DNA of 64,000 nt, taken from the NCBI GenBank assembly GCA_002376715.1, contig DFOK01000110.1, forward strand, positions 67-64,066, read 5' to 3'. The first letter of the stretch is position 1, and each line of letters begins with the position of its first letter. The notes under the pieces were generated by a model. It did not search any database, was not told where the DNA came from, and worked only from the letters and a program-made list of their open reading frames with translations. The translations under genes and the position numbers were made by a program. This DNA is from Bacteroidales bacterium UBA3543. Lineage in GTDB: Bacteria > Bacteroidota > Bacteroidia > Bacteroidales > UBA932. Of the stretch, positions 3 through 30,646 are shown piece after piece.

Positions 3-293
3 CAATTTAATCTAAAGGCCTCCAATGGCGAGATAATACTAACCAGCGAAGGTTACAAGACCAAGGCAGCTTGCCTCAACGGAGTTGAATCTGTAAAGAA
101 AAACAGCGTTGAAGAGGCAAGATACGATAAGAAAGTAGCTTCAAACGGCAAGCCTTTCTTCAATCTCAAGGCCACTAACGGTCAGATAATTGGAAGCAGC
201 CAGATGTACGCATCCGAAAGGACCAGGGACAATGGCATAGCATCCGTTATGAAACATGCTCCTGAAGCTAAAATTGTAGAGCTTCTGGACTAA
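3..293 (+). CDS. YegP-family (DUF1508) protein, 5' end outside window
   Basis: Frame is open from the window edge to TAA at 291-293. Translation shows two tandem DUF1508-like units (FNLKASNGEIILTSEGYKTKAACLNGVESVKKN and FFNLKATNGQIIGSSQMYASERTRDNGIASVMKH). Confidence 0.75.
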   Translation, partial: QFNLKASNGEIILTSEGYKTKAACLNGVESVKKNSVEEARYDKKVASNGKPFFNLKATNGQIIGSSQMYASERTRDNGIASVMKHAPEAKIVELLD

Positions 294-363
294 AATTTAG
301 GGCGTCTGCTTCGCCGAAGGGGCAGACCATAACCAAGGCTCCCGCCGAGGGGATGCTGTTAAA

Positions 364-386
364 ACGGCCCATCAGGGCCGTTTTTC
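364..386 (+). terminator. Rho-independent terminator after the YegP-like gene
   Basis: Hairpin ACGGCCC-atca-GGGCCGT followed by TTTTT, about 70 nt after the stop codon. Confidence 0.7.
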
Positions 387-390
387 TGTT

Positions 391-470
391 GCGGGTTGCA
401 AGGTGCGCGTTGCGAGGTACGGATGTGGTGCGGGGGTATGGATGTGGAAGTATTTGGTGAGTGACTGCGT
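391..470. repeat. Strand-asymmetric intergenic element, G/T-rich on + strand
   Basis: gcgggttgcaaggtgcgcgttgcgaggtacggatgtggtgcgggggtatggatgtgg is the reverse-complement flavour of the GTAACNCGCAMC/ACTAC family seen at 9 other sites. Confidence 0.6.
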
Positions 471-547
471 ATATATAATAGAATGGGGGGCAATGAGACT
501 AAAACAAACAAAATACACTATCGTTACACTGCTAATAATTGAAAGTC

Positions 548-1180
548 ATGTTTAGAAAATTTCACATTATCATCTGGCTTGTGGCCTTACTGTCTGTTTG
601 GTCCTGCCAGCATTTTTTTGATGACGACTTTAAAGGGGCAACCGTATTGTCCGAAATATCTACATCCAACGATGGTGATTTAATCTCAAAATTAACAACG
701 AACTGGATCCCCGGCCACCTGTTTAAAGATGTAAGTGAGGACTATGTCGTTTTTTCTCAAGTAGGATTATTAGGGATAACCCACAAGGATGGAAAATCTA
801 CTACAGGTTATATTAATATGAGTATGGTTCCTAAAAAATATCAGGATTATGCCGGAGAAGCCCCGTCAGAACATTATCGGGTTTCCATAAACTTAAACAA
901 AATATCGTTTAAAGAGGATGGGGCTAGCTATTCTATAGCTGCGAAGAAGATTAAAACCCAGGTTCATTTCGATTCAGGCGCCGGTTGTATCATAATTAGA
1001 AACACTGTTCCAGCTACCGTTTCCGTTTCCGGAAAACTTAATGCACAGGAGCAAACTACCAGGTCCGGTCTCCATCTTGTGGGAGATGTCGCAGTATCAG
1101 TAAAACTCTCCTCAAATGAAGTTATTTCGCTTAAATTTACCGACCTCTATTATAATATGGGTATCGCTTACTACTATTAA
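548..1180 (+). CDS. Hypothetical lipoprotein
   Basis: ORF 539..1180 starts at TTG; ATG at 548 gives MFRKFHIIIWLVALLSVWSCQ, a signal peptide with a lipobox-like Cys. No recognisable catalytic motif. Confidence 0.55.
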   Translation: MFRKFHIIIWLVALLSVWSCQHFFDDDFKGATVLSEISTSNDGDLISKLTTNWIPGHLFKDVSEDYVVFSQVGLLGITHKDGKSTTGYINMSMVPKKYQDYAGEAPSEHYRVSINLNKISFKEDGASYSIAAKKIKTQVHFDSGAGCIIIRNTVPATVSVSGKLNAQEQTTRSGLHLVGDVAVSVKLSSNEVISLKFTDLYYNMGIAYYY

Positions 1181-1255
1181 GGCGCACCTCGAACCCCACA
1201 CTGCATAACACGCAACCCGTAACTCGTAACACGTACCCCGTAACACGCACCCCTA
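1181..1255. repeat. Strand-asymmetric G-poor intergenic element (GTAACNCGCAMC units)
   Basis: cgtaactcgtaacacgtaccccgtaacacgcacc at 1218-1251. It fills the gap between two convergent stop codons (1180 and 1253). Confidence 0.7.
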
Positions 1256-2689
1256 TAAAGTGGGTGAGCCGGGTATGAAGCGTACAGGTTGAGTAGGGAT
1301 AAAAAAGTAACCGCTTCGAGTATCGGCAGTTATCGGCATAGGTGCCGACCATGCTTTTTTCACATCATTGCGCATAAAATCCTCCATATTGAACGGATCG
1401 TTCGGGATAGGAACCACTTCAAAAGTCCCCGAAGCGGATTGATACAGATAATCATATAACCGGACACCGGCTGCACGCCGCAACAACAATTTTACGATGC
1501 TTTCACGGCTCGGAGCGTTGTAGTAAGGACGATTATCTACCATGCAACTACGCTCTTCCGGCCTCCAAACACCCCGTTCATAAAAATAGGCACCCTCATA
1601 ATAACCTACTGCCTGATATCCGGGCAGCGTATAATAATGCGCCCACGGAGCCTGCTCTTTGTCACCGCTGATATCGACATTGAAAGCATAACCGTAATAT
1701 TTTCTCTCTTGCAGTTCCTTTTTATGACGGTAAGGCGAAGAACCTGATCCATCTTCCGGCAATGTCTCTCCGGGGTGTGTTACATATTCATCGACGAGTC
1801 GCCCGAAGCCATGGCCACCGGCCTCATGATGAATCAAGTCAGCCAACCTGGAATAGCTCCCAACCGCTGTTCGACAAACCGGACAAAGTGCAAGTGCCGA
1901 TCCATCTCCGTATTGCCAGCAAAGGCCTCCATAACGGTCAATATTTGCCAAAAGAATAAATAACGTATTTCTCATACGCTCCTCGGTCATACCGGGAATG
2001 CGCCTCGCAGCCTGAAACACCAAATTAGGATTGTCCATAGCCATGACATACGGTTCATCAAAACGGACACCAAAAGTGGTGCGTACTTTAGTGTTTTTAT
2101 CACTTTCCGTAATCCCGCTTTCCGGCGAAAAAACCACAAATTGCGCTACCCGAAAATAGGAACGGTAAGTGCTGAAGGGTTCGACTGAAAAAAAAGCCTC
2201 CATGGCATCTTGCGCATCTCGATTAAAAGAACCCTGTGAGCCATAATCAATCGCGGAATAGCCATCACCCATAATAATCACTTCGTTGGGATAGGTGCCT
2301 TGCGTATGCTTCTGCAGAACCGTATAAGTATAGTCAATTACATCCAACGGTTGTTGGATCACGGTTAAAGTCAAAGTGCGGTTACCACATTTAATAATCA
2401 CCTCCGTTTGGCGAATCCTCTTATCATTGGGCTTCGCCTGGCAGGTCAATTCCATTTCTTGCGCTTCCTGCCCAGAAAGCGGCGTAATCTGCAGCCATGT
2501 AGCATCACTTGGTACCTCGATAGTCCACGGAACATTGCTGGAGAGGTACACCTTATGCGGAGCACCGGTATAGGCCAATTCAATGCTCGGTTCGCTCAAT
2601 GTGCAAATTATCTCCTTTTGACAAGCACATAGCAAAGCCAAGAAACCAAGCCCTAGCCCCAGCAACATTATACGTTTCATAAAATTCAT
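1253..2689 (-). CDS. M64-family (IgA-peptidase-like) metallopeptidase lipoprotein with N-terminal BACON-like domain
   Basis: 478-aa ORF with lipoprotein signal LLGLGLGFLALLCACQ. N-terminal Ig-like segment PWTIEVPSDATWLQITPLSG resembles BACON. Zinc motif HHEAGGHGFGRLVDEY is typical of peptidase M64. Confidence 0.7.
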   Translation of the reverse strand: MNFMKRIMLLGLGLGFLALLCACQKEIICTLSEPSIELAYTGAPHKVYLSSNVPWTIEVPSDATWLQITPLSGQEAQEMELTCQAKPNDKRIRQTEVIIKCGNRTLTLTVIQQPLDVIDYTYTVLQKHTQGTYPNEVIIMGDGYSAIDYGSQGSFNRDAQDAMEAFFSVEPFSTYRSYFRVAQFVVFSPESGITESDKNTKVRTTFGVRFDEPYVMAMDNPNLVFQAARRIPGMTEERMRNTLFILLANIDRYGGLCWQYGDGSALALCPVCRTAVGSYSRLADLIHHEAGGHGFGRLVDEYVTHPGETLPEDGSGSSPYRHKKELQERKYYGYAFNVDISGDKEQAPWAHYYTLPGYQAVGYYEGAYFYERGVWRPEERSCMVDNRPYYNAPSRESIVKLLLRRAAGVRLYDYLYQSASGTFEVVPIPNDPFNMEDFMRNDVKKAWSAPMPITADTRSGYFFIPTQPVRFIPGSPTL

Positions 2690-2787
2690 ATAGTTTTTCT
2701 TTTGTTAGTAATCTGCTAAAGAATGATAAACCGCCGGCACTAAATTTAAATGCTTATATTTGCCCGAGTCATAATAAATATCTCATA

Positions 2788-2973
2788 ATGAGAACTGAAA
2801 TTTGTCCTCGCTGCGGCGCCTCTTTCGAATGCTATCATGACACCCACTCGCACAACGATTGCTGGTGCACACGCCTTACACTTCCTCCGGCCGTTTTGAA
2901 ACAATTACAGCATCAGTGGCCCGGTAAATGTCTCTGCAAAAAATGTCTGGAGGAGTTAGTCGTTGGCCTTTAG
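2788..2973 (+). CDS. Cysteine-rich CWC-family small protein
   Basis: 61-aa ORF MRTEICPRCGASFECYHD...NDCWCTRL...CLCKKCL, the Cys pattern of the Cys_rich_CWC family. Confidence 0.6.
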   Translation: MRTEICPRCGASFECYHDTHSHNDCWCTRLTLPPAVLKQLQHQWPGKCLCKKCLEELVVGL

Positions 2974-3102
2974 CTGTTGGCTGTTAACCTTTAACACCTA
3001 CTGCTTAACCTCCGCAACCCGAACCTCGCCATCCAACCCCTCAACCCAAACCTCGCACCAACTCACTACATACTACACACTACATACTACATACTCAAAA
3101 CT
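2974..3102. repeat. Strand-asymmetric G-poor intergenic element, largest copy
   Basis: By hand count, about 5 G in the last ~100 nt. It reads ccgcaacccgaacctcgcc...cctcgcacc, then cactacatactacacactacatactacatactc, and ends at the stop of the minus-strand S41 peptidase gene. Confidence 0.75.
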
Positions 3103-4710
3103 CTACTTCCACCTGTCAAGGGCCTGGTATAGTCCCTGATCATCTCTCAGACGGATATTGTATTCTGAACCTCGCAAATAGTATTTTACCAAAATTTCTT
3201 CTTCCAGAAGAGGAACTATCTCCTCTTTCTTAATACGCAGCATAGTCTCCTTGTCCACCTTGATACGTGCGGATAGAGCATCAATTTCGCTCTTGTACAC
3301 ATCGTAGAGTCCGTCCTGCTTTGCCGCCTTTATCAACTGGTCAAGTGCAGACTCTGCGGAACTGCGGATGTCAAATTCGCGGGTTCCGGCATAACGGATA
3401 AAGTCTTCGTACTCCCCATCAGTGAGATGGAACTCAGCGGCGGGAGCTATGGAGAGATTCTTTTTGAAATATTCGATTGCGTAATCGCCGAGAATATCAT
3501 TGTAAACAAGAGAATATGCGGGACGGCTATAAGACCTGGCCGGCACAATAAGATCGGGAGTGATACCGCCACCATCGAAAACGCTGCGGCCAAGGCGTGT
3601 CTTGAACTCACGTTTCAGACTGTCGGGTACATTCCCCACGCTGCCATCCTCATTGCGGTGGCTATAATCGATGGCTTGGACACATCTGCCGCTGGGAGTA
3701 TAATATTTCCCCGAGGTAATCTTAACCTTACCGTCATAGAGAGTGGGTTTGATGGACTGAATAAGTCCCTTCCCGAAAGTTCTCCTGCCGGCTATGGCTC
3801 CTCTGTCCAAATCCTGGAATGCTCCGGCAACAATCTCCGATGAAGAGGCTGAACCGCTGTCCACCATTACGAGTACGGGGATTAGCGTATCAATAGGGGG
3901 AGTGGTTGTGTAATACTCTTCATTCATCCTCTCTTCACGTCCTCTAGAGGAGAGTACATGAGTACCTTCCGGTACAAATAGCGACATAAGCGATACCGCT
4001 TCTTCCATAATACCCCCACCGTTGCCCCTGAGGTCGATTACCAGGCGTTTTGCGCCCTTCTCTTTCAAGGCCATTACACTCTCCTTAAACTGAAGATGCA
4101 TATTTTGAGTAAATCCCGTCAGTACTATATAGCCGATGGAATCCCTGATAATCTCCGCATAAGCAATATCGGAAACACGGATTCTCTCACGGGTGACGGT
4201 AATATCCACCGTATCGAGGGTACGACCTCGGATCACGGTAAAAATCACATTTGTACCGGGCTGTCCCTTCATCTTGGCGGCACTCTGAGCGGAGGTTTCT
4301 CCATAGACCGATACTCCGTCGATGGCTATAATCACATCTCCGGGGACCATGCCCGCCTTTACTGCAGGAGAACCCGGATAAGGCTCGACAATCAGCACTC
4401 CGCTGTCGGGACTCTTCTTGATAAGAGAACCGATGCCTCCGTAGGCACCCGTCGTCATCATTTCAAAATCTTCTCCCTCCTCTTCCGGAATGTATGTAGT
4501 ATAGGGATCGAGCGACTGGAGCATCGCTTTGATACCGACGGGTATGATTTTACCATAATCTATGGTGTCAACATAAGATTTGGAGAGCTCTTTCAGTATC
4601 GAATACTGAATCTCCATATTCTGTCCTAATTTGAAGTCGCCGGACTGCGCAAATAAGGTCACTGATACCAAAATTGCGAATGTAACCGCGATGGTTTTGA
4701 AAAATTTCAT
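3103..4710 (-). CDS. ctp: S41-family C-terminal processing (tail-specific) peptidase
   Basis: ORF 3103..4740; ATG at 4710 gives MKFFKTIAVTFAILVSVTLFAQ signal. It has a PDZ-like segment (GDVIIAIDG) and S41 motifs (DLRGNGGG, SASSSEIVAGAFQD, GKG). Confidence 0.85.
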   Translation of the reverse strand: MKFFKTIAVTFAILVSVTLFAQSGDFKLGQNMEIQYSILKELSKSYVDTIDYGKIIPVGIKAMLQSLDPYTTYIPEEEGEDFEMMTTGAYGGIGSLIKKSPDSGVLIVEPYPGSPAVKAGMVPGDVIIAIDGVSVYGETSAQSAAKMKGQPGTNVIFTVIRGRTLDTVDITVTRERIRVSDIAYAEIIRDSIGYIVLTGFTQNMHLQFKESVMALKEKGAKRLVIDLRGNGGGIMEEAVSLMSLFVPEGTHVLSSRGREERMNEEYYTTTPPIDTLIPVLVMVDSGSASSSEIVAGAFQDLDRGAIAGRRTFGKGLIQSIKPTLYDGKVKITSGKYYTPSGRCVQAIDYSHRNEDGSVGNVPDSLKREFKTRLGRSVFDGGGITPDLIVPARSYSRPAYSLVYNDILGDYAIEYFKKNLSIAPAAEFHLTDGEYEDFIRYAGTREFDIRSSAESALDQLIKAAKQDGLYDVYKSEIDALSARIKVDKETMLRIKKEEIVPLLEEEILVKYYLRGSEYNIRLRDDQGLYQALDRWK

Positions 4711-6119: not shown

Positions 6120-7637
6120 ATGTCTCTCATCAATAAAATATATCTCTCCTGTGCACACGGGATGCTCAAGGGGCTGGACCGCACCAGGAAATATCCTTTC
6201 GAAGTACAGAAAGAAGTGTTTGCAACTCTTCTGAAGGGAGGTGCGGATACTATTTTTGGCTCAGAGCACGGCTTTTCGAAGATCAACTCGATCCAAGATT
6301 TTCAGCGTCAGGTACCGGTTCGTGATTATAATGCGCTATACCCCTATATCGAACGGCTGCGTTTCGGTGAAAATTATGTACTTTGGAATGAAAAAACCCA
6401 CTTTTTTGCTAAAAGCTCGGGAACAAGTTCAGGCAAGAGCAAGTTTATCCCCATTACTCATACCAACCTCCGGGAATGTCATTACGGAGGGATGCTGCGA
6501 ATGCTGGCCAACTATGTGCAAAATTATCCGGACTCACGAATTTATTCCGGTAAGTCAATCACTCTAGGAGGTAGCGTAGCACCCGATTTTGGCGGAAGAA
6601 ATTTCAGTGGCGACCTCTCAGCAATACTTCTGCGCAACTCACCCGCTTTGGCGGAATTATTACGCATACCAAACAAAAAAATAGCGATGATGCACGATTT
6701 CCACGAAAAGGTGGAGATTATTTGTCGCAAATACAGTAAGGCCAATGTGACAAACTTTGCCGGAGTACCCTCCTGGAACCTTATTATGCTCCGCCGTGTA
6801 ATGGAGTATAACAATGTACGTTGGCTGACTGACGTGTGGCCTAACCTGGAGTTGTTTATGCACGGAGGTATAAGTTTTGAGCCCTACAGAGCACAGTACG
6901 ACGCTATTATTCCTCCCGGTTCGGTGCGTTATTTTGAGAATTACAATGCTTCCGAGGGATACTTCGCTTTTCAAGATGATCCTGAAGATAAATCTATGCT
7001 GCTGACACTCGACAACGGAGTCTTCTATGAATTCACTACTCTCAAAGAGCTCTCCGATGCAATGGAAAACGGACGACCCGTACCCACTCTTACTGTTGAC
7101 GAGGTACAGACCAATGTGCCATACGCTGTCATAATATCAACTACAGCCGGTTTGTGGCGCTATCTTATAGGCGATGTGATAACATTTACCTCGCTCACTC
7201 CCCACAAGGTGGTTATTTCCGGCAGGACCCAACTCTTCATTAATGCCTTCGGAGAGGAATTGATGATTGGCAATGCCAACACGGCTTTGGCAGCTGCCTG
7301 CAAGATGCACAATGCTACGGTAAGTGATTTTACCGTCGCTCCGATCTTTATGGAAGGAGAGTCAAAAGGTGCCCACCAATGGGTGATTGAATTTGAAAAT
7401 GCACCCGAAGATGTGGAGGCTTTTGCCGATACTCTGGATGAGGAGCTCTGCGCCTGCAATTCCGATTATGAGGCAAAACGCACTCATACCATGACAATGG
7501 AGCGGCTCCACCTGGCAGTTGTCCCTGAGGGAACATTTTATCGCTGGATGGAGTCACGCGGCAAAATAGGCGGCCAAAACAAAGTCCCCCGTCTCTACAG
7601 CGACCGCCGCTATGTGGATGAAATCCTTCGGATTTAG
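6120..7637 (+). CDS. GH3 auxin-responsive-promoter family protein (acyl-adenylate-forming superfamily)
   Basis: ORF 6090..7637 starts at TTG; ATG at 6120. Motifs FAKSSGTSSGKSKFIPIT and the length (about 505 aa) are typical of Bacteroidetes GH3-family proteins. Confidence 0.8.
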   Translation: MSLINKIYLSCAHGMLKGLDRTRKYPFEVQKEVFATLLKGGADTIFGSEHGFSKINSIQDFQRQVPVRDYNALYPYIERLRFGENYVLWNEKTHFFAKSSGTSSGKSKFIPITHTNLRECHYGGMLRMLANYVQNYPDSRIYSGKSITLGGSVAPDFGGRNFSGDLSAILLRNSPALAELLRIPNKKIAMMHDFHEKVEIICRKYSKANVTNFAGVPSWNLIMLRRVMEYNNVRWLTDVWPNLELFMHGGISFEPYRAQYDAIIPPGSVRYFENYNASEGYFAFQDDPEDKSMLLTLDNGVFYEFTTLKELSDAMENGRPVPTLTVDEVQTNVPYAVIISTTAGLWRYLIGDVITFTSLTPHKVVISGRTQLFINAFGEELMIGNANTALAAACKMHNATVSDFTVAPIFMEGESKGAHQWVIEFENAPEDVEAFADTLDEELCACNSDYEAKRTHTMTMERLHLAVVPEGTFYRWMESRGKIGGQNKVPRLYSDRRYVDEILRI

Positions 7638-7680
7638 TTACGGGGTGCAGGGTTATAGATTTGGGGCTCTGAGCTTGGCC
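7637..7680. repeat. Short G/T-rich member of the post-stop element family
   Basis: ttacggggtgcagggttatagatttggggctctgagcttgg begins at the stop codon of the GH3-family gene. Confidence 0.4.
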
Positions 7681-7681
7681 A

Positions 7682-7759
7682 ACATTTGGTGGAAAACGGC
7701 AAATTACATAAAAACATTTGGTGGAAAACGGCAAATTGACGAAAAAAATTTGGTGGGGA
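7682..7759 (+). repeat. Two exact 24-bp direct repeats plus a degenerate third copy upstream of the AAA ATPase gene
   Basis: ACATTTGGTGGAAAACGGCAAATT at 7682-7705 and 7714-7737 (32-bp period). A partial AATTTGGTGGGGA at 7747-7759 contains a TTTG in -33 position. Confidence 0.8.
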
Positions 7760-7797: not shown

Positions 7798-9144
7798 ATG
7801 GCAGAGGATATGATTCATTTCAAGAGAAAGATTTATGACACTATGCTCAAATGGAAAAATGAGCGTAATGGTGATACCGCATTGCTTATACAAGGAGCTC
7901 GCCGTGTTGGTAAATCCACTATTGCGGAAGAGTTTGCACGCAAAGAGTATAAATCGTACATATTGATCGATTTCTCAAAAGTCTCCAAAGAGGTCAGCGA
8001 TTTGTTCAATGATATATCGGATTTGAATTATCTCTTCATCAGGTTGCAATTCATTTTCCAAGTAGAATTGCATGAGCGAGAGTCTGTAATTATTTTCGAC
8101 GAAGTACAGTTGCAACCATTGGCAAGGCAGGCTATCAAACACCTTGTCAAGGATCATAGATATGATTATATTGAAACCGGCTCTTTAATATCCGTAAGAT
8201 CCAAAAGTCGCGATATCATTATTCCAAGTGAAGAAACCAAGGTGAATATGTATCCCATGGACTATGAGGAATTCAGATGGGCATTGGGAGATAATGCAAC
8301 CATACCTTTATTGCGTACGGCATTTGAAAAGAAAATGCCGCTTGGCGATGCTGTTCATAGAAAACTTATGCGTGATTTTCGGTTGTATATGCTTGTGGGA
8401 GGTATGCCTCAAGCTGTTTCCGCATACATTAATACCAATAACTTTACAGCAGTAGATGTGGTTAAACGAGACATCATTGCTCTATATGAAGAGGACTTCG
8501 GTAAGATTGATGATTCGGGAAGAGCAAAAGCTATGTACGATGCCATACCGGCTCAATTAAGCAGAAACAGGTCACGATATCAAGTCGGAAATGCCATCCC
8601 TGAAGAGAAGGTCGATAGGGTAATAAATATCATCAAGGATATGGAAGACTCTATGACAACAAATGTGGCTTACCATGCTGATGACCCCAATGTGGGCTTG
8701 GCATTGACTATGAATCAGGAATATTTCAAGATGTATGCTTCCGATACCGGTCTTTTCGTTACGCTTGCATTTAAGGATAGTGACATAACGGAAAATGTTA
8801 TTTACAAGAAGTTGCTCAGTGACAAACTAAGCGCCAACCTTGGTTATGTATATGAAAATGTGATTGCTCAGATGTTAAAAGCTACCGGCAAAAACTTGTT
8901 CTATCACACCATACCATATGCTGACGGTAAAAAGTATTATGAAGTAGATTTTATAATCACTGACAAACATAAAATTTCACCCATTGAGGTTAAATCATCG
9001 GGGTATAAAACGCACAAATCACTAGACGAATTTTGCGTCAAGTTCTCTGACCGCATAATGAACAAGTATGTGATTTACACAAAAGACTACAGATATGAAA
9101 ACGGGGTACACTATGTACCTGTTTATATGACAATGTTTTTGTAA
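7798..9144 (+). CDS. AAA-family ATPase with DUF4143-type C-terminal domain
   Basis: 448 aa. Walker A GARRVGKST, Walker B-like VIIFDEVQ; overall layout matches the AAA_14/DUF4143 ATP-binding proteins common in Bacteroidales. Confidence 0.8.
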   Translation: MAEDMIHFKRKIYDTMLKWKNERNGDTALLIQGARRVGKSTIAEEFARKEYKSYILIDFSKVSKEVSDLFNDISDLNYLFIRLQFIFQVELHERESVIIFDEVQLQPLARQAIKHLVKDHRYDYIETGSLISVRSKSRDIIIPSEETKVNMYPMDYEEFRWALGDNATIPLLRTAFEKKMPLGDAVHRKLMRDFRLYMLVGGMPQAVSAYINTNNFTAVDVVKRDIIALYEEDFGKIDDSGRAKAMYDAIPAQLSRNRSRYQVGNAIPEEKVDRVINIIKDMEDSMTTNVAYHADDPNVGLALTMNQEYFKMYASDTGLFVTLAFKDSDITENVIYKKLLSDKLSANLGYVYENVIAQMLKATGKNLFYHTIPYADGKKYYEVDFIITDKHKISPIEVKSSGYKTHKSLDEFCVKFSDRIMNKYVIYTKDYRYENGVHYVPVYMTMFL

Positions 9145-9351: not shown

Positions 9352-10857
9352 ATGAAACTCAAACTACTTATTTCGGCACTCCTAGCCCTATTGGTGGCGG
9401 GCTGCACGCACAATATTAATCTTCCCGAGCCTGTTGAAGGAGAGGGAAAGATGGTTACCATACGCGCAACGATCCCACCGGAGACCCGCGTAGCGTACGA
9501 TGACGGCACACGCACACTCTCATGGCAGGACGGTGACCAGCTCCTGCTGGTAGGATATGATGACAACGGTGCCTATAAAGGACATAATGTCTTTACATTT
9601 CAAACAGGAAGCAGCGGTAATTTTACGGGAAATGCCGTATCAGGGGCTACAAAATACAAAGCCTATTATCCGGGAAATGTCATCACGCTGGACCTAAACG
9701 GCAACTTAAAACCTCTTCTCGCCAATTTCTGGCAACAGACACAGAACGGAAACAATTCTACTGCACACCTTCGCGATAAAATCCTCATGTATGACGAGAC
9801 TGCCAATCCCCTCAACGAAACTTTCAACTTGGCTTTGAAGAGCAGCATTATCAAATTTAATCTCCAAAACGTGCCGGCCAACGTGGGAACACTAGTCAAC
9901 CTGATTTGGATTGTAGAGAATGAACCGGGAGTGAATAAACATTTGAGGCTTGATGTAACCGGTGTAACCTTCTCTACCGCCCAGGACAATATCACCGCGT
10001 TCCTCGCTTTTGACCCCACCGTGACACAGGTCGCTGCAAACGGAAAGGTGAGAATATCACTAATTGGGGAGCAGACGTATGTGTGGACGAGCGGCACCTT
10101 AACGGAAGGAAAGAACTACTCCGTAGGAAATCGCTACACAGGTAGTGTAAATAGCGGTTGGGTAAGGGTAATCAACCCGCTCAGCTACGTTGCCGCATAT
10201 AATGTAAATCCTGACGGTACCGGCTTTGACAATAATCTGACAGCCTGCAATGTGAGCGGTCACTTTACTTGGAATGCTGCAAGGGCTATCAATATTCCCT
10301 GTTATTACCTGCCGAGCAATGAAGAATGGATGAGTATTGTGCCGAAGCGAGGTAACTACGTTTATGTTGACTTCGATAGCATGGCTCCCAAGCCATATGA
10401 TAATATTACTGAAAACGTCATAGTTCAAGGAGCGAACATTACTATGACCAGCGATTTTCGCAATTATTCTAGGCTTTGTTATGCCCTTCGTTACCAGGGT
10501 ACCGGTATGGTCTCTGCTTGGAAGTATGAGTATAAAAACTATAATACTAATAATTGTCATATGAAGATTACTTGTCGTAGTGTAGCAGCATCGACAAGCA
10601 TTGATGATATCGCCAACGAGGCTTTCTGGAGTACCGGTAACGGGAACGATGTGGTTCGATATTTCCCTGCCGGCGGTAGCCTTAGTAACCAGTACGGATA
10701 CCAGATGAGAGGCTCTAGTGGCCTTTTTTGGTCTTCTACTGAGGCTGAAAACAATAGCGATTACGCTTTGATTATGGTATTCGGTCCATTCAATGCTGTA
10801 TCCAATAGAGCAACCCTAAAGTCTGAGCAGTATACTGTCCGTTTGTTTACCAATTAA
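9352..10857 (+). CDS. Surface lipoprotein: fimbrillin-like N-terminal region plus C-terminal FISUMP (Fibrobacter succinogenes major paralogous) domain
   Basis: 501 aa with lipobox LLALLVAGC. SWQDGDQLLL-type motif as in fimbrillin-like proteins. The C-terminus (YYLPSNEEWMSIV ... FPAGG ... GLFWSSTE ... YTVRLF) matches the FISUMP pattern. Confidence 0.65.
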   Translation: MKLKLLISALLALLVAGCTHNINLPEPVEGEGKMVTIRATIPPETRVAYDDGTRTLSWQDGDQLLLVGYDDNGAYKGHNVFTFQTGSSGNFTGNAVSGATKYKAYYPGNVITLDLNGNLKPLLANFWQQTQNGNNSTAHLRDKILMYDETANPLNETFNLALKSSIIKFNLQNVPANVGTLVNLIWIVENEPGVNKHLRLDVTGVTFSTAQDNITAFLAFDPTVTQVAANGKVRISLIGEQTYVWTSGTLTEGKNYSVGNRYTGSVNSGWVRVINPLSYVAAYNVNPDGTGFDNNLTACNVSGHFTWNAARAINIPCYYLPSNEEWMSIVPKRGNYVYVDFDSMAPKPYDNITENVIVQGANITMTSDFRNYSRLCYALRYQGTGMVSAWKYEYKNYNTNNCHMKITCRSVAASTSIDDIANEAFWSTGNGNDVVRYFPAGGSLSNQYGYQMRGSSGLFWSSTEAENNSDYALIMVFGPFNAVSNRATLKSEQYTVRLFTN

Positions 10858-10887: not shown

Positions 10888-10938
10888 CCTCGGGGTGGGG
10901 ATTGGGGCTTTGGCACCACGCACCTCGTACTACAAATG
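10888..10938. repeat. Composite member of the post-stop element family (G-tract half plus C/A half)
   Basis: cggggtggggattggggctttgg followed by caccacgcacctcgtactac. Confidence 0.45.
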
Positions 10939-11462: not shown

Positions 11463-13792
11463 GGAAGCAGCGGTAATTTTACGGGAAATGCCGTATCTGG
11501 GGCTACAAAATACAAAGCCTATTATCCTGCAGATGCCATCTTCCTGGATCCTAATTATGGTGTGCATTTTGATAAATTATGGCAACAGACACAGAACGGA
11601 AACAATTCTACGGCACATCTAGGCGACAAGCTGTGTTTGTGTGACGAGTCGGGCCACGGTTTAGATCAGCTATTTACATTAGCAGCCAAGAACAATATCC
11701 TAAGACTTAATCTCACCGGCATGCCGGAGTGGTTAGGAACCCTCAAAAGACTGATTTGGACCGTTGAGTACGAAACAGGATGTACTCGATCCACATGCCT
11801 CGATATCACCAACTATACATACACTTCAGGTGACGAACTGATTGCTTACCTCGCTTTTGACCCTACGGTGACGAGGATCATTGCGAACGGAGAGGTAAGA
11901 ATCACGCTGATAGGCGACATGTCGTTCGAGTGGAAAGCCACAACGAACAAGCCGAATGGCATGAACTACGCACAAGGGAATACCCGCTACTACGCTTCAG
12001 TAAGTGATGGTTGGCTTAATGTTGCTCCACTGATGTACACCATCAGAACCAATGACCCAAATACGGAATATGGAATCAAGCAACCATTTGCTTCCTCCAT
12101 AAACCCTTGCCATATGACTATCTACTGGGGAGATGGATCCGAAAACACATTTTTAACACAAAACAGTACACTTTCACCGGAGAGATTTGCTTCGCATAAC
12201 TACACCGGCGTAGGTGATTATACAATTACCATCATTTCCGACCAAGCAGGTGCCGTAAAACAGATGCCGCAAATCACATTTTACGAACATATTGGAAACA
12301 ACTTATACGAAAGCGATACGCTGCTTACAACAGTACTGACCCCTTTCCCCAACATGGAGGCAAATTCTTTCGAAGAATGCTTCTGCGGCTGCAATCAATT
12401 AACCTCCATTCCGGCAGATCTGTTCAGGTTCAATACTCAAGCAACAAATTTCCATGGCTGCTTCTGGCTGTGTACCAAATTAACCTCCATTCCGGCAGAC
12501 TTGTTCCAATACAACGTGTCTGCAGAAAATTTTGCGGGTACATTCTTAGCCTGCTACTCATTAACTGAAATTCCTACGGGATTGTTTGACGACAATACGC
12601 AAGCAACAAATTTCACCCGCTGTTTCGAATATTGTACCTCATTAACTTCTCTTCCTCAGGGATTGTTTGGCTCCAATGCGAATACGCAAGCGACAATTTT
12701 CGAAAGCTGCTTCAAACACTGCATATCATTAACTACTGTTCCTACAGGATTGTTTAGCAACTATTCACAAGCAACAACCTTCGAAAGCTGTTTCCAATAT
12801 TGCCGTTCATTAACGACTCTTCCTCAGGGATTGTTTAGCACAAATACACAAGCAACAAATTTCAGCCTGTGCTTCCATTATTGTACTTCATTAAATAACC
12901 TTCCTACGGATTTGTTTAAATATAATACGCTGGTGACAAATTTCAGCGATTGTTTCTTGCAATGCCACTCATTAACTACTCTTCCTGCGGATTTGTTTAA
13001 GCATAATACGCTGGTGACAAATTTCGACGGATGTTTCTGGGCCTGCGAGAATTTAAACAACATTCCGGTAGATCTGTTCAGATACAACACGGCAGTAACA
13101 ACTTTCTCTTACTGCTTCGCGGGGTGCCTCTCATTAGACAATATTCCGGCAGACCTGTTTAGGGACAATACGGGCGTAATAAGTTTCCACGCATGCTTCG
13201 CTCAATGCACCTCGTTAACTACTATTCCTACGGGATTGTTCAGTGCTAATGCGCAAGTACAAGATTTCGCCAACTGCTTCCGAGAATGCAACTTTACTCA
13301 ACTTCCGGCAGATCTATTCACCGGTAATGGGGCGGCAATATCTTTCAACTTTTGCTTTTACGACTGCCCCGCGTTAACTTCTCTTCCTCAGGGATTGTTT
13401 AGCAATAATACGCAAGCAGAATCCTTCTATGGCTGTTTCAACAACTGCACAGCATTAACTACTCTTCCTGATAACTTGTTTTCAAATAATTTGGTTGCAA
13501 CAAATTTCGAAGACTGCTTCAAAAATTGCACTAAGTTGGTTTTAAAAAGGAAATTTTTCCGCTTCCGCAGGGCAATGACCAAGGTTTTTTTGCGAATAGA
13601 ACAATGCGTTTCGCAAATTGTTTTAACGGTGTAGGTTCGAACTCAGCAGTTCAAGGTACTGCCCCTGAGTTATGGAACTTTTACGGAGGTGGGGGTCAAA
13701 CGGGTCCAACAATATGGGTGATTGAAAACTGTTTCACTAACGCCAATGTAACTAACTACAACGATATTCCTAACTATTGGAAAGGATTATAG
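11463..13792 (+). pseudogene. 5'-truncated, frameshifted paralog of the 9352..10857 lipoprotein, fused to a PKD-like segment and 15 BspA/DUF285-type leucine-rich repeats
   Basis: Homology to gene 9352 begins abruptly at 11463 (64/65 nt identical to 9607-9671). There is no signal peptide and no in-frame ATG; the frame is open only from 11424. The reading frame breaks near 13535-13545, so the ORF track splits it into 11562..13634 and 13604..13792. A hairpin terminator follows the second frame. Confidence 0.6.
12369..13538 (+). repeat. Coding tandem repeat, about 81 bp x 15 (27-aa Cys-containing LRR units)
   Basis: Units of the form F-x-x-C-F-x-x-C-x-S-L-T-x-(I/L)-P-x-x-L-F-x-x-N-T-x-A-T-N. Neighbouring units at about 12895-12955 and 12969-13025 are nearly identical at DNA level. 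Confidence 0.85.
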
Positions 13793-13860: not shown

Positions 13861-13913
13861 CCCGCACCCCGTGCCCCCGCAACTACATACTACCCACTAC
13901 ATACTCGCAACTA
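13861..13913. repeat. G-poor element (ACTACATACTAC type) upstream of the B12 riboswitch promoter
   Basis: cccgcaccccgtgcccccgcaactacatactacccactacatactcgcaac. This is the only copy not oriented with a gene 3' end. Confidence 0.6.
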
Positions 13914-13939: not shown

Positions 13940-13947
13940 TACCTTTG
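13940..13947 (+). promoter_or_regulatory. Bacteroidetes-type -7 promoter box for the riboswitch-btuB transcript
   Basis: TACCTTTG is an exact TAnnTTTG match, 7 nt upstream of the predicted riboswitch P1 stem. Confidence 0.5.
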
Positions 13948-13953
13948 CATCGT

Positions 13954-14099
13954 AATTGAGGCTAAAGGGAATCCGGTGCGAACCCGGGACTATACCCGTA
14001 GCTGTGAGTTCTGTAATTCCTAAGCTATTCTTTGCCACTGTCCTTTGCGGATGGGAAGGCAGCTCGAAGGAGGAACAAGTCAGAAGACCTGCCTTGATT
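13954..14099 (+). promoter_or_regulatory. Cobalamin (B12) riboswitch
   Basis: Conserved core AAAGGGAATCCGGTGCGAACCCGGGACTATACCCGTAGCTGTGAG, GCCACTG, GGGAAGGC and AAGTCAGAAGACCTGCC. The P1 stem pairs aattgaggc (13954-13962) with gccttgatt (14091-14099). It lies 50 nt upstream of a TonB-dependent receptor gene. Confidence 0.9.
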
Positions 14100-14148
14100 A
14101 TTTGTTGGATTGGAAATCCCGGGTTTGGATTTCATGATTTGTTGTTAA

Positions 14149-16170
14149 ATGCAATACTCCTTCAGGGCATTTTTCAAAACTGTAGTACTTATTGCGGTAG
14201 CATTATTTCTGTTGCCGGCAACTCTTTTTGCCCAAAATAAGAAGCGGGACACAGTAGTAGTGCGTCAACTGGAGGAGTCGCGCATCACATCTGTCACCAA
14301 GCCCTCACCCACTCTTCAGAGCGCACCCGTGCAAGTTATGGATCGTACTGCCATTGAACGTTTGGGAGTACAGGAACTGCACGAAGCAGTCAAAAATCTC
14401 GCAGGTGTCAATATTCGTGACTATGGCGGTATCGGCGGCATCAAGACGGTCTCCATAAGAAGTCTCGGAGCTCAGCATACGGCGGTATCCTACGATGGTA
14501 TTGCGGTATCCGACATACAGAGCGGACAGGTGGACATCGGAAGGTTTTCGCTGGACAATGTGGAGATGATTACTCTCTCCATAGGCCAAAGCGATGAAAT
14601 TTTCAAGTCTGCAAGGTTGTTTGCCTCCGCAGGAACACTCAACATCACCTCGTCAGTACCTGTTTTCGAAGAGTGCGGCACTAATGTCACCGCACGTATG
14701 AGAGTGGGGTCATTCGATACCTATAACCCTTCCCTGCTATTGGAGCAAAGACTGGGAAGCAGGTGGGCGCTCGGAGCGAATGCCGATTGGGTAACCTCCA
14801 AGGGCGATTACCCCTTCATCATCGATAACGGCAGGGAGCTGGAGCATCTGTTGAGAAAAAACAGCGATGTCAATACCCTCAGAGCGGAGATCAATCTCTG
14901 GGGTTCTATCGGCGCTTCCGGCAAATTTTCACTCAAGGCAAGCGGCCTTTCGGGTGAAAGAGGACTCCCCGGTTCGGTGGTTCTTTACAATCAGGATGCA
15001 TTTGAGCGCTTGTGGGACAAAAACGGTTTCGTCCAGGCTTCCTATAATACCACCCTCGGCCAAAAATGGGACCTGAAAAATGTACTCAAATACAACTATG
15101 CCTGGAGCAAATATTACGATGAAAGTCAGCGATATCCCTTGGGGTTTGTAGAAGACCTTTATACTCAGCAGGAGTATTATGGCTCGATAGCTACCCGTTT
15201 CAAGCCTGCAAAGGGAGTGGAATTGACATTTGCGCAGGACCTGTTCTACAACACTCTGGATGCATCAATTCCCGAATGCCCATTTCCCGAAAGGATAAAT
15301 TCACTTACAACTCTAGCGGGAAAATATCAGGGGTCATCTGTAACCATTGTTGCCTCACTTACCAATACATATATAACCGAAAAGGTGCAAAAAGGCGATC
15401 CCGCGCCTAACAGAAACAACCTTTCACCTGCTCTGAGCATCTCCTGGAAGCCCTTCAAGGCCACCAATCTCCGAATCAGAGCCTCATACAAAATGGGATA
15501 CCGTGCACCCACCTTCAATGACCTCTACTATTTGAGAATGGGCAACACCAACCTCAGACCTGAGCGTGCCGACCAGTACAATCTAGGATTAACCTGGAGC
15601 GGCACTCTCGGCAAAGAGGAGTCAGGATGGCTCTCCGCCACTCTGGATGGCTACTACAATAGCGTAGAAGACAAAATTGTGGCCAGACCCACCCTCTTTA
15701 TATGGAAAATGATGAACATAGGCAAAGTGCAGATAGCAGGAGCAGATCTGAGCGTCACTTCCAGGGTTCGGTTCGGCAACAATCACAGCATCACACTCTC
15801 AACCAACGCTTCATACCAGTATGCTGTGGATGTTTCGGACCCCGAGAGCAAAACCTGGCGTCACCAGATTCCCTACACCCCACGCATTTCGGGAGCAGTC
15901 AATCTTGCCTGGAGCAACCACTGGGTCAATCTAAGCTACATCATCTCCTTTGTAGGAGACAAATATTCACTGCCCCCCAATGTGGAGCGCAACCTCATCA
16001 AGGGCTATGCCGAACATACCGTCTCAGCATACAGGGACTTTAACCTGCGCAGAATCTCTTTCCGACTCCAGGGAGAAATAATTAACTTTACCAATAAAAT
16101 GTACGATATCATACAATATTATCCGATGCCCGGACGCAACTTCAGGCTCACATTAAAAATTAAAATATAA
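14149..16170 (+). CDS. btuB: TonB-dependent receptor, vitamin B12 transporter BtuB-like
   Basis: 673 aa with signal peptide and plug-domain motifs (DRTAIERLGV, IRSLGAQHTAVSYDGIAVSD). It sits directly downstream of the cobalamin riboswitch. Confidence 0.85.
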   Translation: MQYSFRAFFKTVVLIAVALFLLPATLFAQNKKRDTVVVRQLEESRITSVTKPSPTLQSAPVQVMDRTAIERLGVQELHEAVKNLAGVNIRDYGGIGGIKTVSIRSLGAQHTAVSYDGIAVSDIQSGQVDIGRFSLDNVEMITLSIGQSDEIFKSARLFASAGTLNITSSVPVFEECGTNVTARMRVGSFDTYNPSLLLEQRLGSRWALGANADWVTSKGDYPFIIDNGRELEHLLRKNSDVNTLRAEINLWGSIGASGKFSLKASGLSGERGLPGSVVLYNQDAFERLWDKNGFVQASYNTTLGQKWDLKNVLKYNYAWSKYYDESQRYPLGFVEDLYTQQEYYGSIATRFKPAKGVELTFAQDLFYNTLDASIPECPFPERINSLTTLAGKYQGSSVTIVASLTNTYITEKVQKGDPAPNRNNLSPALSISWKPFKATNLRIRASYKMGYRAPTFNDLYYLRMGNTNLRPERADQYNLGLTWSGTLGKEESGWLSATLDGYYNSVEDKIVARPTLFIWKMMNIGKVQIAGADLSVTSRVRFGNNHSITLSTNASYQYAVDVSDPESKTWRHQIPYTPRISGAVNLAWSNHWVNLSYIISFVGDKYSLPPNVERNLIKGYAEHTVSAYRDFNLRRISFRLQGEIINFTNKMYDIIQYYPMPGRNFRLTLKIKI

Positions 16171-16189
16171 ATCAAATAACGATAAAAAA

Positions 16190-17311
16190 ATGAAAAGAAC
16201 ACTTCTCAGACTCGCAATTATTGCAGGAGCGGTACTGATTATGTCATCCTCCTCCTGCCTCGACCCCAACAATGGTAAAGAACCTGAAATTCCTCTGACT
16301 ACCATCGGTACCTACATCCTCAACAATGGTAATTTTGGTTCAAACGATGCCAACTTTACGGCTTATAATCCTTACACCAAGGAGCTCAATTACAACATCT
16401 TCGAGCGCAGTAATGAAGGCAGGAAACTCGGTGACACCGCTCAGGATATGATTGCTTTCGGCAGTAAAATTTATATTGCCGTCTACAACTCCGGGGTCAT
16501 TTTCGTAACTGACCTTGAGGGTAAAGTAATCAAGGAGATCAAAACCAAGGCTAAAGGTTCAGCAGCCAATCTATCGCCACGCTTCTTCACCACCTGGGAA
16601 AACTACGTATATGTAACCTTCTACGAGGGTTATGCCGGCAAGATTGACACCACATCCCTAACAGTATCCGCACTTGCAAAAGTCGGTGACAATCCTGAAC
16701 AGATCAAAATTGCAGGTGAAAAACTCTATGTTGCCAATTCAGGTGGTATGAACTATCCCAACTACGGCAAGACTCTCTCTGTACTCAACCCCGTTACCAT
16801 GGATGTGATGAGCGAAGTTAAGGTATCGGACAATCCGGTCTATCTGGAGTCTGACTCAAGAGGTAATCTCTATGTGATATCCATGGGCAACTATAATGAT
16901 GTTCCCTCCTGCCTTCAAATCGTCAACCCCAACAACGACTCCGTTCAGAAACTTGAGCTGGAGGGTATTACTCCCACATTTATCGCCAAAGGTCCGGGCA
17001 ATGCCCTCTATCTTGTAAGCTCGAGTTATGATGCAAATTGGAATCTTATAGCCGATTATTATGTCTTCGATACAAACAAAAAAGAAATCTACGGCAAACT
17101 GATAAAAGATGGAACACGCGTGGAAAATCCCTATTCTCTTTCCGCTGACACACTGCTTACACTTATTTACATAGGCACATCCGACTATGTAACCAACGGA
17201 CAGATGTATGTAATCGATGCCTTTGGACACATGTATCACGCATTTGACACCGGAGGACTCAACCCTATCACCGCATGTCCGGTAACTGCCGGTGGTAAAA
17301 AAGATAAATAA
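16190..17311 (+). CDS. Beta-propeller (YncE/YVTN-like) surface lipoprotein in the BtuG position
   Basis: 373 aa with lipobox IMSSSSC. Repeated propeller-blade motifs (KVGDNPEQIKIAGEKLYVANSGG, KVSDNPVYLESDSRGNLYVISMG). Position immediately after btuB matches the Bacteroides BtuG arrangement. Confidence 0.55.
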   Translation: MKRTLLRLAIIAGAVLIMSSSSCLDPNNGKEPEIPLTTIGTYILNNGNFGSNDANFTAYNPYTKELNYNIFERSNEGRKLGDTAQDMIAFGSKIYIAVYNSGVIFVTDLEGKVIKEIKTKAKGSAANLSPRFFTTWENYVYVTFYEGYAGKIDTTSLTVSALAKVGDNPEQIKIAGEKLYVANSGGMNYPNYGKTLSVLNPVTMDVMSEVKVSDNPVYLESDSRGNLYVISMGNYNDVPSCLQIVNPNNDSVQKLELEGITPTFIAKGPGNALYLVSSSYDANWNLIADYYVFDTNKKEIYGKLIKDGTRVENPYSLSADTLLTLIYIGTSDYVTNGQMYVIDAFGHMYHAFDTGGLNPITACPVTAGGKKDK

Positions 17312-17313
17312 CA

Positions 17314-18447: not shown

Positions 18448-18448
18448 A

Positions 18449-19459: not shown

Positions 19460-19462
19460 GAG

Positions 19463-28418: not shown

Positions 28419-28466
28419 TCTGCACCCAGTAACTCGCAACGCACCCGCACTACTACAGACTACCCA
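28419..28466. repeat. G-poor post-stop element
   Basis: cccagtaactcgcaacgcacccgcactactacagactacccac abuts the serpin stop codon at 28467-28469. Confidence 0.7.
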
Positions 28467-29780: not shown

Positions 29781-29900
29781 AACTTATAGTGTATTGAGAT
29801 TTTTAAATAAAATAATGTCTGTCTAATTACATTTACGCAGTAACTCGCCAAATACTTCCATCACTGATTAAATATTTCAACTGTTTAAAGCATTAAATGA

Positions 29901-30004
29901 TAACATACCGCATAACACGTAACACGCACCAAGTACCCCGCACCGCGTAACCCGAACCTCGCACCAAGTACCTCGCACCATGTAACACGTAACTCGCACC
30001 CCGC
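29901..30004. repeat. G-poor post-stop element (GTAACNCGCAMC units)
   Basis: cataacacgtaacacgcaccaagtaccccgcaccgcgtaacccgaacctcgcaccaagtacctcgcaccatgtaacacgtaactcgcacc ends at the stop of the deoxynucleoside kinase gene. Most G residues occur within CG dinucleotides. Confidence 0.75.
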
Positions 30005-30616: not shown

Positions 30617-30646
30617 TGCTCCTGTTTTTGAGCCCACAAGATAGCA

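Follow-up and report, generated by a model that had tools for sequence, protein, structure and literature searches.

Catalogues of bacterial tandem heptanucleotide repeats go back decades, yet what these repeats do has still not been worked out. Here we describe degenerate heptanucleotide tandem-repeat arrays (long simple-sequence or minisatellite-like repeats) in a 64,000-nt stretch of the genome of Bacteroidales bacterium UBA3543 (GenBank assembly GCA_002376715.1, contig DFOK01000110.1, positions 67 to 64,066 of the forward strand), which in its full length is referred to as the window and from whose first nucleotide all coordinates are counted. The arrays occupy the DNA from a stop codon to the next functional element, and often supply a TAG stop. 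Their occurrence is restricted to a single clade of genus rank among the uncultured Bacteroidales of anaerobic digesters, and they belong to a known kind, the prokaryotic heptanucleotide simple repeats, which comprises long simple sequence repeats (SSRs), short tandemly repeated repetitive sequences (STRRs), and TAACTGA repeats. The digester clade offers an unusually clean case, with one heptad consensus, fixed stop anchoring and polarity, and clear gain and loss events.

The long SSRs with units of 5-11 nt (Mrazek et al. 2007) most commonly have heptameric units, are mostly non-coding, have a sporadic phylogenetic distribution, and have been put down to polymerase slippage, all as summarised in PMC4679880. 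Measured against that summary, the arrays share the head-to-tail 7-nt unit and the mostly non-coding location and differ in being strongly degenerate, mixing variants of one heptad. Head-to-tail iteration is seen by Tandem Repeats Finder (TRF) in six arrays and by an autocorrelation scan of the window, which returned 11 period-7 segments compared with 1.3 in shuffles and no intergenic enrichment for any other period from 4 to 12. The arrays are located predominantly in non-coding DNA, and their copy number changes between related species. To our knowledge, the description of the long-SSR class covers neither a stop-codon anchor nor a fixed polarity with respect to the adjacent gene. The stop-codon anchoring, the link to TAG, and the polarity appear to be new among prokaryotic heptanucleotide repeats.

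Cyanobacterial STRRs are 7-bp tandem repeats in intergenic and intercistronic DNA, e.g., between hupS and hupL; their function is unknown, and roles in transcript stability or translational coupling have been proposed (PMC2670836). The arrays resemble STRRs in having a 7-bp unit in tandem in intergenic and intercistronic spacers. They differ in that STRR copies are reported to be hairpin-capable, whereas the arrays have no hairpin potential beyond that of shuffles, and in the host (filamentous cyanobacteria versus Bacteroidales); the unit sequences probably differ as well. TAACTGA heptamers form direct repeats in Beggiatoaceae, cyanobacteria, and a few Bacteroidetes; the copies are near-perfect, lie mostly a few nucleotides before start codons, and have been proposed to act in translational control (MacGregor 2015, PMC4679880). 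The two share intergenic tandem heptamers, an orientation preference relative to the gene, and a sporadic spread that includes Bacteroidetes, whereas the arrays described here are degenerate (R-K-T-N-Y-G-N) and lie downstream of stop codons. An earlier annotation of the window from its sequence (the original prediction) did not recognise in the elements any repeat class described before; as far as the kind of repeat goes this does not stand, as tandem intergenic heptanucleotide repeats are known (PMC4679880, PMC2670836). Repetitive extragenic palindromic sequences and bacterial interspersed mosaic elements (REP/BIME) are also short non-coding repeats that cluster at gene 3' ends, often between convergent genes, with many copies per genome. 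Unlike the arrays, which are non-palindromic tandem repeats, they are imperfect palindromes mobilised by REP-associated tyrosine transposases (RAYTs), and no RAYT-type transposase was seen in the window.

Unit clusters, defined as at least three units (CGYAMC or ACTACM) within 20 nt, occur seven times in the window, compared with a mean of 0.025 in 200 Markov shuffles, and 7/7 are intergenic (388-432 on the minus strand; 1211-1251, 3054-3091, 13863-13911, 28435-28471, 29918-30000, and 62355-62381 on the plus strand). TRF found period 7 or 14 at 388-418, 1206-1253, 3007-3095, 13878-13913, 28452-28476, and 29907-30000, with degenerate copies (68-93% matches). Alignment of nine arrays in a common 7-nt register by expectation-maximisation (EM) gave one consensus heptad, R-K-T-N-Y-G-N on the G-rich strand, four of whose seven positions (R, K, T, and G) are constrained at about 1 bit each across unit types. 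GTTACGN, GTTGCGN, and GGTGCGN (the "GTAAC..CG" type) and AGTATGT (the "ACTACAT" type) are transition variants of this heptad, and the differences between the AGTATGT and GGTACGT types are transitions only. On the C-rich strand, G makes up 10.9%, and 67% of these G are in CpG, compared with 22% window-wide. The original prediction was thus right that the family is real, non-coding (only 2955-3006 overlaps the last codons of a small gene), and poor in G outside CG on one strand. Its two unit types both recur in clusters, yet they are variants of one heptad, and its statement that the elements are not tandem repeats of a fixed unit is overturned by TRF and the period-7 scan, which show a degenerate 7-nt unit in tandem. 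In the window, the heptad makes up nine or ten intergenic stretches. Of the copies that had been listed, 391-470 holds an array at 388-436 and a separate motif at 445-471, and 7637-7680 and 45425-45480 are weak alone and are backed by arrays at the same gene ends in relatives. Composition alone does not mark the family: a scan that ran without a false-positive control returned 127 segments (90 G-poor and 37 C-poor) compared with about 82 in shuffles, nearly all of them in coding DNA, with 2984-3114 as the sole outlier. An assembly artefact is ruled out because the arrays are identical in five and in three independent assemblies.

The arrays are tied to gene 3' ends. Among the 26 intergenic gaps of at least 25 nt in the window, 10/19 gaps that hold a gene 3' end contain an array, compared with 0/7 divergent gaps (p = 0.02); these comprise three of the four convergent gaps, all four being non-overlapping, and seven of the 15 tandem gaps. 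For seven arrays, a stop codon lies 0-3 nt before the array start and belongs to a gene whose sense strand is the G-rich one, namely genes for an M64 peptidase, an S41 peptidase, a GH3 protein, a serpin, a deoxynucleoside kinase, a tadA-like deaminase, and a tryptophanase-like lyase. The G-rich strand is the sense strand of the anchored gene at nine of ten independent sites (p = 0.02), the exception being 13861-13913; the orientation statistics are limited to about ten sites because about 60 kb of additional neighbourhoods from relatives yielded no further independent ones. These counts uphold what had been claimed on placement, i.e., that the elements belong to gene 3' ends, that they start near a stop codon or terminator (the seven just named, and 388-436 past a terminator hairpin), and that the transcript of the anchored gene carries the G/U-rich strand. 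TAG is the stop codon of five of the seven genes beside arrays and of 9/42 other genes (p = 0.015), and across relatives the stop codon co-varies with the presence of an array at the GH3, M64, and tadA ends. Orientation is not set by the replication strand because it flips with gene blocks and tracks the gene strand while the cumulative GC skew is monotonic over the window. Back-up stop codons were also considered as the reason for the polarity and rejected: stops on the G-rich strand occur only in RTGTAGT and GAGTTNN units, GTTGCGN units have none, and GTTACGN units carry TAA on the opposite strand.

Many 3' ends have no array. Those of the highly expressed or housekeeping genes for GroEL, SecDF, and GlyRS have ordinary hairpin terminators, and hairpin terminators separate from the arrays adjoin two of them (364-388 and ~62265-62305). 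A consensus terminator scan found 17 sites compared with 14.7 in shuffles, missed an obvious terminator, and was not used further.

Folding of both strands, together with Rfam scans, rules out a hairpin or structured-RNA reading, in agreement with the earlier view that the elements are not hairpins. The C-rich strand folds at -0.01 to -0.07 kcal/nt, compared with -0.17 +/- 0.06 in random genomic windows, the G-rich strand has no more structure than its own shuffles (minimum free energy z-scores of ~0), and folding found no intrinsic-terminator hairpin inside the arrays. At gathering score, the window gave two Rfam 15 matches, to a cobalamin riboswitch and to a tRNA, and none to an array; at E<=1 there was no match over 250-3200 and 28300-30100.

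The C-rich strand is similar in composition to a Rho utilisation (rut) site, as had been proposed for the antisense strand. Its C content is 38-49% and its G content 7-15% in eight of nine arrays, the weaker one being 45425-45480, with 25% C and 5% G. In Escherichia coli, Rho-dependent termination is predicted by C>G bubbles and is rare in regions that lack them (PMC6144790). A C>G scan with the 78-nt window used for E. coli Rho terminators (PMC6144790) placed arrays at the top value of each strand (+43.6% at 3004-3081 and -38.5% at 387-464, with a window mean of 2.8 and an sd of 8.4), and the intergenic entries among the top plus-strand values are all arrays. The C-rich strand has 17-23 YC dimers per 100 nt in eight of nine arrays, compared with a window average of 13, and only 7 per 100 nt in 45425-45480. 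Only 3007-3102 and 29901-30004 exceed 78 nt and several arrays are 31-56 nt long, and RTGTAGT-type units give the RNA ACUACAY on the C-rich strand, which has no YC dimer. E. coli Rho needs an RNA footprint of about 60-80 nt. The arrays thus resemble rut sites and C>G bubbles in having a C-rich, G-poor, and unstructured strand (PMC6144790), and differ from them in that this strand runs antisense to the gene beside it and that the majority of the arrays fall short of 78 nt; the likeness is a resemblance in possible working, not class membership. A further analogy concerns the other strand. Eukaryotic genes have GC-skewed, R-loop-prone pause regions downstream. The arrays are like these, by analogy only, in placing a strongly G-rich non-template strand just past the coding end, and differ in that the eukaryotic regions belong to a Pol II context.

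The reading that we prefer, with a probability of about 0.5, is that slippage and copying between arrays generate them and that transcription and translation filter their placement. Replication slippage and copying between arrays with a shared unit vocabulary would create and spread the arrays, and tolerance by transcription and translation would set where they lie and which way they point. Because the G-rich strand carries TAG and TGA, an array could adjoin or replace a stop codon without lengthening the protein, and because the RNA of that strand would be a poor Rho substrate, an array could fit into a 3' untranslated region (UTR) or an operon spacer and cause no polarity there. In the reverse orientation, the sense transcript would bear a long rut-like stretch that is rich in C, poor in G, and unfolded, and selection would act to remove such an array. 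As a side effect, transcription entering a gene from its 3' side would yield rut-like RNA. The arrays would then be passengers that the cell tolerates, with side effects that depend on their orientation, and would not be devices with a purpose of their own.

The polarity might alternatively be purely mutational, arising in neutral repeats. Transcription would expose the non-template strand to deamination of cytosine, which, with slippage amplifying the resulting heptads, would make the sense strand lose C and gain T in unconstrained DNA just past stop codons. RTGTAGT and AGTATGT are indeed C-to-T (CpG-to-TpG) and G-to-A variants of GGTACGT and GTTACGN, decayed units (e.g., GTTATG) lie at array ends, and the arrays are variable between species and dispensable. 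However, the G-rich strand has as little as 0-12% C, an extreme depletion that is seen in the arrays only, the non-array 3' spacers nearby having no strand skew; one consensus at independent loci and in unrelated metagenomes is not expected of drift from random seeds, and arrays that are C-rich on the sense strand are common by start codons elsewhere. We regard this explanation as quite unlikely.

The individual arrays differ in unit make-up and in how they meet the adjacent gene. The array at 388-436 (GTTGCGN/GGTGCGN, G-rich on the plus strand; TRF period 7/14, unit cluster, and period-7 scan) directly follows the terminator hairpin (364-388) of a DUF1508 gene (3-293, plus strand), and counterparts made of other units lie at the same place in L002, L003, and L006 (L numbers denote loci of relatives or metagenome contigs compared with the window). 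At 1181-1252, an array of GTTACGN/GGTACGN (G-rich on the minus strand; TRF, unit cluster, and period-7 scan) begins at the M64 peptidase stop codon, a TAG (1253-1255), and takes up all of the convergent gap; L002, L003, and L006 have orthologous arrays, and L010 has no array and a TGA stop. The interval flagged originally, 2974-3102, has as its core a composite array of GAGTTTT, RTGTAGT, and GGTKNNG (3007-3102, G-rich on the minus strand; TRF), which has the S41 peptidase stop codon, a TAG (3103-3105), as its anchor. It adjoins an unskewed array of GTTGGCT/GTTAACC/TTTAGCT at 2955-3006 (period-7 scan 2948-3008; no strand assigned) that overlaps the final codons and TAG stop (2971-2973) of a Cys_rich_CWC gene (2788-2973, plus strand) and has related GCYAACA arrays in L005 (5372-5422), L006 (9829-9883), and L163 (12152-12211). 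Arrays occupy the entire spacer at 1181-1252, at 2974-3102, and at 45425-45480. The short array at 7638-7668 (TTACGGG GTGCAGG GTTATAG, G-rich on the plus strand; period-7 scan, weak alone) has its anchor at the GH3 stop codon, also TAG (7635-7637), where L001, L002, L003, and L005 have longer arrays and L004 and L006 a minimal one. Membership is weakest for a mixed element at 10892-10938 (period-7 score 18; no strand assigned), in which the G-rich heptads GGGGTGG GGATTGG GGCTTTGG are followed by the C-rich CACCACG CACCTCG TACTACA, about 35 nt past the stop of a gene at 9352-10857 (plus strand).

The array at 13861-13913 (listed on the minus strand and C-rich on the plus strand; TRF and unit cluster) is the single exception to the stop-anchored, G-rich-sense rule. 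It is C-rich on the sense strand and lies immediately 5' of the promoter and cobalamin riboswitch (13942-14110, plus strand; Rfam RF00174, 89.6 bits) that head a TonB-dependent receptor operon (14149-20494), and an array is kept 5' of the riboswitch in L002, L005, and L006, in L006 between divergent genes. A Bacteroidetes-type -7 box, TAccTTTG, is found at ~13940-13947. Three further arrays are G-rich on the minus strand. The one at 28419-28466 (TRF and unit cluster) has the TAA-TAG that ends the serpin gene (28467-29780, minus strand) as its anchor and lies upstream of a YgjP-like gene; it is identical in four same-species assemblies and has a variant with one-unit differences in L156. The one at 29901-30004, with 14- and 35-nt super-repeats of GGTGCGA/GTTACGN (TRF score 132), is anchored where the deoxynucleoside kinase gene (30005-30637, minus strand) ends in TGA. 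The one at 62324-62389 (unit cluster; identical in L160-L162) is anchored on the TAG stop of the tryptophanase-like gene (62390-63769, minus strand), which is followed by the stop, the array, and then a hairpin with T runs in both directions (~62265-62305). Finally, an array of GAGTWNN/TAGTATN at 45425-45480 (listed on the minus strand and G-poor on the plus strand) takes up the spacer that separates the tadA-like deaminase gene (TAG stop 45481-45483) from a VTT-domain gene.

The order of stop, array, and hairpin bears on the 3'-UTR function suggested in the original prediction. Under such a function, G/U-rich heptads in the 3' UTR would bind an RNA-binding protein (e.g., a Bacteroidetes protein of the RNA recognition motif (RRM) type) or block 3' exonucleases and thereby affect how stable the mRNA is or how its 3' end forms. 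The array of the tryptophanase-like gene is flanked by the stop and a terminator hairpin and would hence belong to the mRNA, and L016 has the same order; four of the seven heptad positions are constrained across unit types, and transcript stability or translational coupling has been proposed for the STRR heptamers (PMC2670836). On the other hand, four species have the DUF1508 array past the terminator, closely related species differ freely in how long the arrays are and which units they hold, the G-rich strand folds no better than shuffles, Rfam gave no match at E<=1 over 250-3200 and 28300-30100, and no candidate binding protein was identified. A role of this sort seems to us very doubtful.

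The preferred reading, slippage and copying followed by a tolerance filter, draws on the heptad identity, placement, polarity, TAG link, and RNA properties given above, on the order of paired arrays in metagenomes, and on the turnover, gain, and facultative presence of the arrays among relatives. The window has ~45% G+C and encodes proteins typical of Bacteroidetes, including a BACON-domain M64 peptidase, the S41 peptidase, the TonB-dependent receptor with the cobalamin riboswitch upstream, the serpin, and GroEL. Its nearest public relatives are metagenome-assembled genomes (MAGs) of uncultured "Bacteroidales bacterium" from anaerobic digesters and biogas reactors, and GroEL identity delimits a tight clade (>=97%), followed by a gap to the next sequences (<=89%). 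At the S41 gene end, an array is present in 9/9 loci of relatives that include this end (L001-L006, L010, L016; 86-96% amino acid (aa) identity) and absent in relatives at <=67% identity. These arrays draw on a common vocabulary (GAGTTYY, RTGTAGT, GGTKRCG, and a AGGGGAAGTTGAGGGGTG module) in varying unit numbers and order, and that of the window differs from that of L006 (96% aa identity) by a 73-nt block. Arrays are likewise kept, with differing units, at the GH3, M64 peptidase, DUF1508, serpin, and kinase gene ends. The kinase array is 104 nt in the window and ~25 nt in the 96%-identical L156, with the remaining spacer conserved, and units and blocks are gained and lost between species at the S41, kinase, serpin, GH3, M64, and tadA ends. 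No variation was found within species for the kinase and serpin arrays in five assemblies and the tryptophanase array in three, and a hypervariable contingency locus is not supported, given the identity of the arrays across independent samples of one species. Arrays are absent from the outgroup loci L008, L009, L011, L158, L159, and L165, and several close relatives have none in 21 kb. The arrays are facultative and dispensable, since many 3' ends have hairpin terminators and some clade members are array-free over 21 kb.

The tadA-VTT junction provides the clearest view of gain. In L164, L165, L171, and L173 (one outgroup and three clade members), the first gene ends in TGA or TAA and just 2-4 nt separate it from the second, compared with TAG and a 56-nt array in the window and TAG and a 76-nt array of different units in L163, L175, and L176, the protein end being unchanged. 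Arrays have therefore been gained even in an operon spacer, bringing or overwriting the stop codon. Such a gain could be the footprint of a mobile or templated insertion just past stops, through a non-autonomous element or break repair that copies arrays. The 56-76 nt array where four relatives have a 2-4 nt spacer would fit, as would two different arrays at exactly one junction, both with the stop changed to TAG, a unit vocabulary common to unrelated loci, and the absence from L010 of the stretch bounded by a G-array start and an inverted C-array end. We nevertheless consider an insertion highly improbable: there are no terminal inverted repeats, target-site duplication, fixed length, or fixed ends, no associated transposase or reverse transcriptase in the window, and orthologous arrays differ by internal unit changes, as expected of slippage. 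In L010 (~7060-7115), the GH3 gene end is fused directly to the cobalamin riboswitch promoter. The missing stretch runs, in L002, from the G-array start (ATAGTT) through the inverted C-array end (AACTAT), as if an inverted array pair had been excised.

Heptads of other kinds occur as well. Families with no G/C skew are found elsewhere in the clade (AATTGCT/AATTGTC; L001 4844-4892 and L005 11846-11900) and likewise in Alistipes MAGs (AATTTCC and ATTACTC/ACTACTA; L013 2579-2667 and 9428-9487). Several kinds of tandem heptamer are therefore scattered through Bacteroidales intergenic DNA. A pure RTGTAGT repeat also occurs in unrelated phage and giant-virus contigs, and the RTGTAGT array was discarded as a clade marker.

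Public metagenome contigs were scanned for three GKTRCG heptads, which gave at least 120 loci; among the matches listed, to which all metagenome counts here refer, these come from many habitats with 36-71% G+C. Most of the listed matches extend well past the search pattern and are therefore true arrays. A G-array followed by an inverted C-array within 150 nt occurs at at least 20 loci and the reverse order at one (p = 2e-5), a count that drew on about 100 unrelated arrays of the same unit type. Tandem contexts hold 13 G-rich-sense arrays, adjoining the upstream stop at a median of 16 nt, and 17 C-rich-sense arrays, adjoining the downstream start at a median of 31 nt. From this placement and order, a polarity in which the G-rich strand points away from the adjacent gene seems to be general, and restriction to 3' ends is a property of the digester clade. 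The orientation rule as first proposed thus holds in the window (9/10) but is not universal in metagenome tandem contexts (13 versus 17 among the matches listed). In L040, L043, L038, L078, L117, L147, and others, a GTTGCGN-type array is followed tens of nucleotides on by an inverted copy. The pairs form long perfect hairpins right past the stop, some on contigs with >60% G+C, and look like repeat-built hairpin terminators without a U tract. As a general account, pairing of a G- and a C-array into one long hairpin terminator was rejected, as one pair folds modestly better than shuffles (z = -2.7) and another does not (z = -0.4).

Another possibility is that the arrays are selected. They may be one-way Rho-dependent insulators, in which outgoing G-rich RNA would not be Rho-loadable, whereas incoming convergent, antisense, or upstream read-through transcription would make C-rich, G-poor, unfolded RNA that recruits Rho, and polymerase would be stopped before or just inside the gene. 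The arrays are the strongest C>G windows, with an essentially unstructured C-rich strand, and like features predict Rho-dependent termination in E. coli (PMC6144790). They lie in three of the four non-overlapping convergent gaps, and convergent pairs in relatives have two arrays, each on its own gene's side and G-rich on that gene's strand (L002 11295/11417, L003 13664/13774), which fits well. The exception at 13861-13913 would also fit well, with its C-rich strand toward the riboswitch operon, upstream of the promoter of that operon. The G-then-C order prevails by at least 20 to 1 in unrelated metagenome loci among the matches listed, and the S41-end array is kept in nine close-relative loci despite sequence turnover. 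Against this, the arrays are facultative, with several close relatives lacking any over 21 kb; several are only 31-56 nt long, under the 60-80 nt footprint of E. coli Rho; ACUACAY from RTGTAGT-type units has no YC dimer, and 45425-45480 has only 7 YC per 100 nt; and tandem contexts have no obvious source of incoming antisense transcription. It is possible, if on the unlikely side, that the arrays are selected, lineage-specific polar boundary elements that recruit Rho as one-way insulators and are renewed by slippage. If true, the metagenome polarity (at least 20 to 1 among the matches listed) would point to a widespread and undescribed use of repeats to give Rho-dependent termination a direction. 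The mutational, 3'-UTR, and insertion explanations are weaker than this one.

Several points weigh against our preferred reading of slippage, copying, and a tolerance filter. A tolerance filter alone leaves the G-rich-sense polarity of arrays between convergent genes unexplained, and slippage alone cannot turn a 4-nt spacer into an array of 56-76 nt; the copying between arrays is something that we infer. In the metagenome tandem contexts, 17 C-sense arrays near starts are found next to 13 G-sense arrays near stops (matches listed), and C-rich sense RNA is therefore tolerated in other lineages. Positive selection could be behind the retention of the S41 array in nine loci through full unit turnover. 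Most arrays are shorter than the 60-80 nt of E. coli Rho and RTGTAGT units have no YC dimer, the Rho criteria being those of E. coli, which may not be those of this clade. The independent sites are also few (about ten). The arrays make the question testable by relating array orientation to Rho-dependent polarity and the arrays to antisense or convergent transcription.

The arrays also affect annotation, as they make spurious ORFs, extend start codons, and replace stop codons. The start of the YgjP-like gene is pushed into the serpin array both by the gene caller in L156 (12083-12817) and in the open reading frame (ORF) list of the window (27729-28439), in line with the earlier remark on spurious ORFs; another call on the L156 YgjP-like sequence starts 132 nt further in (L166).

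Other repeats and motifs were also noticed. The right third of the copy originally listed as 391-470 is not array but a promoter-like 27-nt motif, TGGAAGTATTTGGNGAGTNACTGCGTA, which occurs at 445-471 (plus strand) and 29834-29860 (minus strand), with 0 expected in the window, and a third time past the right end of the window (L160 ~2285-2311). The copies are ~75-80 nt upstream of the start codons of a gene at 548-1180, the serpin gene, and a small L160 gene, and their shape (GGAAG-N16-GCGTA) resembles a promoter of the extracytoplasmic function (ECF) sigma type. A 32-nt direct repeat, AACATTTGGTGGAAAACGGCAAATTGACGAAA (7681-7756; 2.4 copies, 91% matches), is found upstream of an AAA_14/DUF4143 ATPase gene (7798-9144); in L006 (2090-2180), another AAA_14/DUF4143 ATPase gene is preceded by ATAATTACGTTTTGGTG, a direct repeat that differs from this one. 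The divergent region upstream of a ribonucleotide reductase gene (31427-33949, minus strand) has, at 34077-34157, 2.8 copies of TTATCAACAAAG (TTATCAACA is similar to a DnaA box) together with TTACAGTTACA repeats; this may be a regulatory site. Finally, 81-nt tandem repeats (27 codons, 70-85% matches) at 12557-13038 lie within a 690-aa ORF (11562-13634) that has no Pfam match, and in translation they look like leucine-rich repeats.

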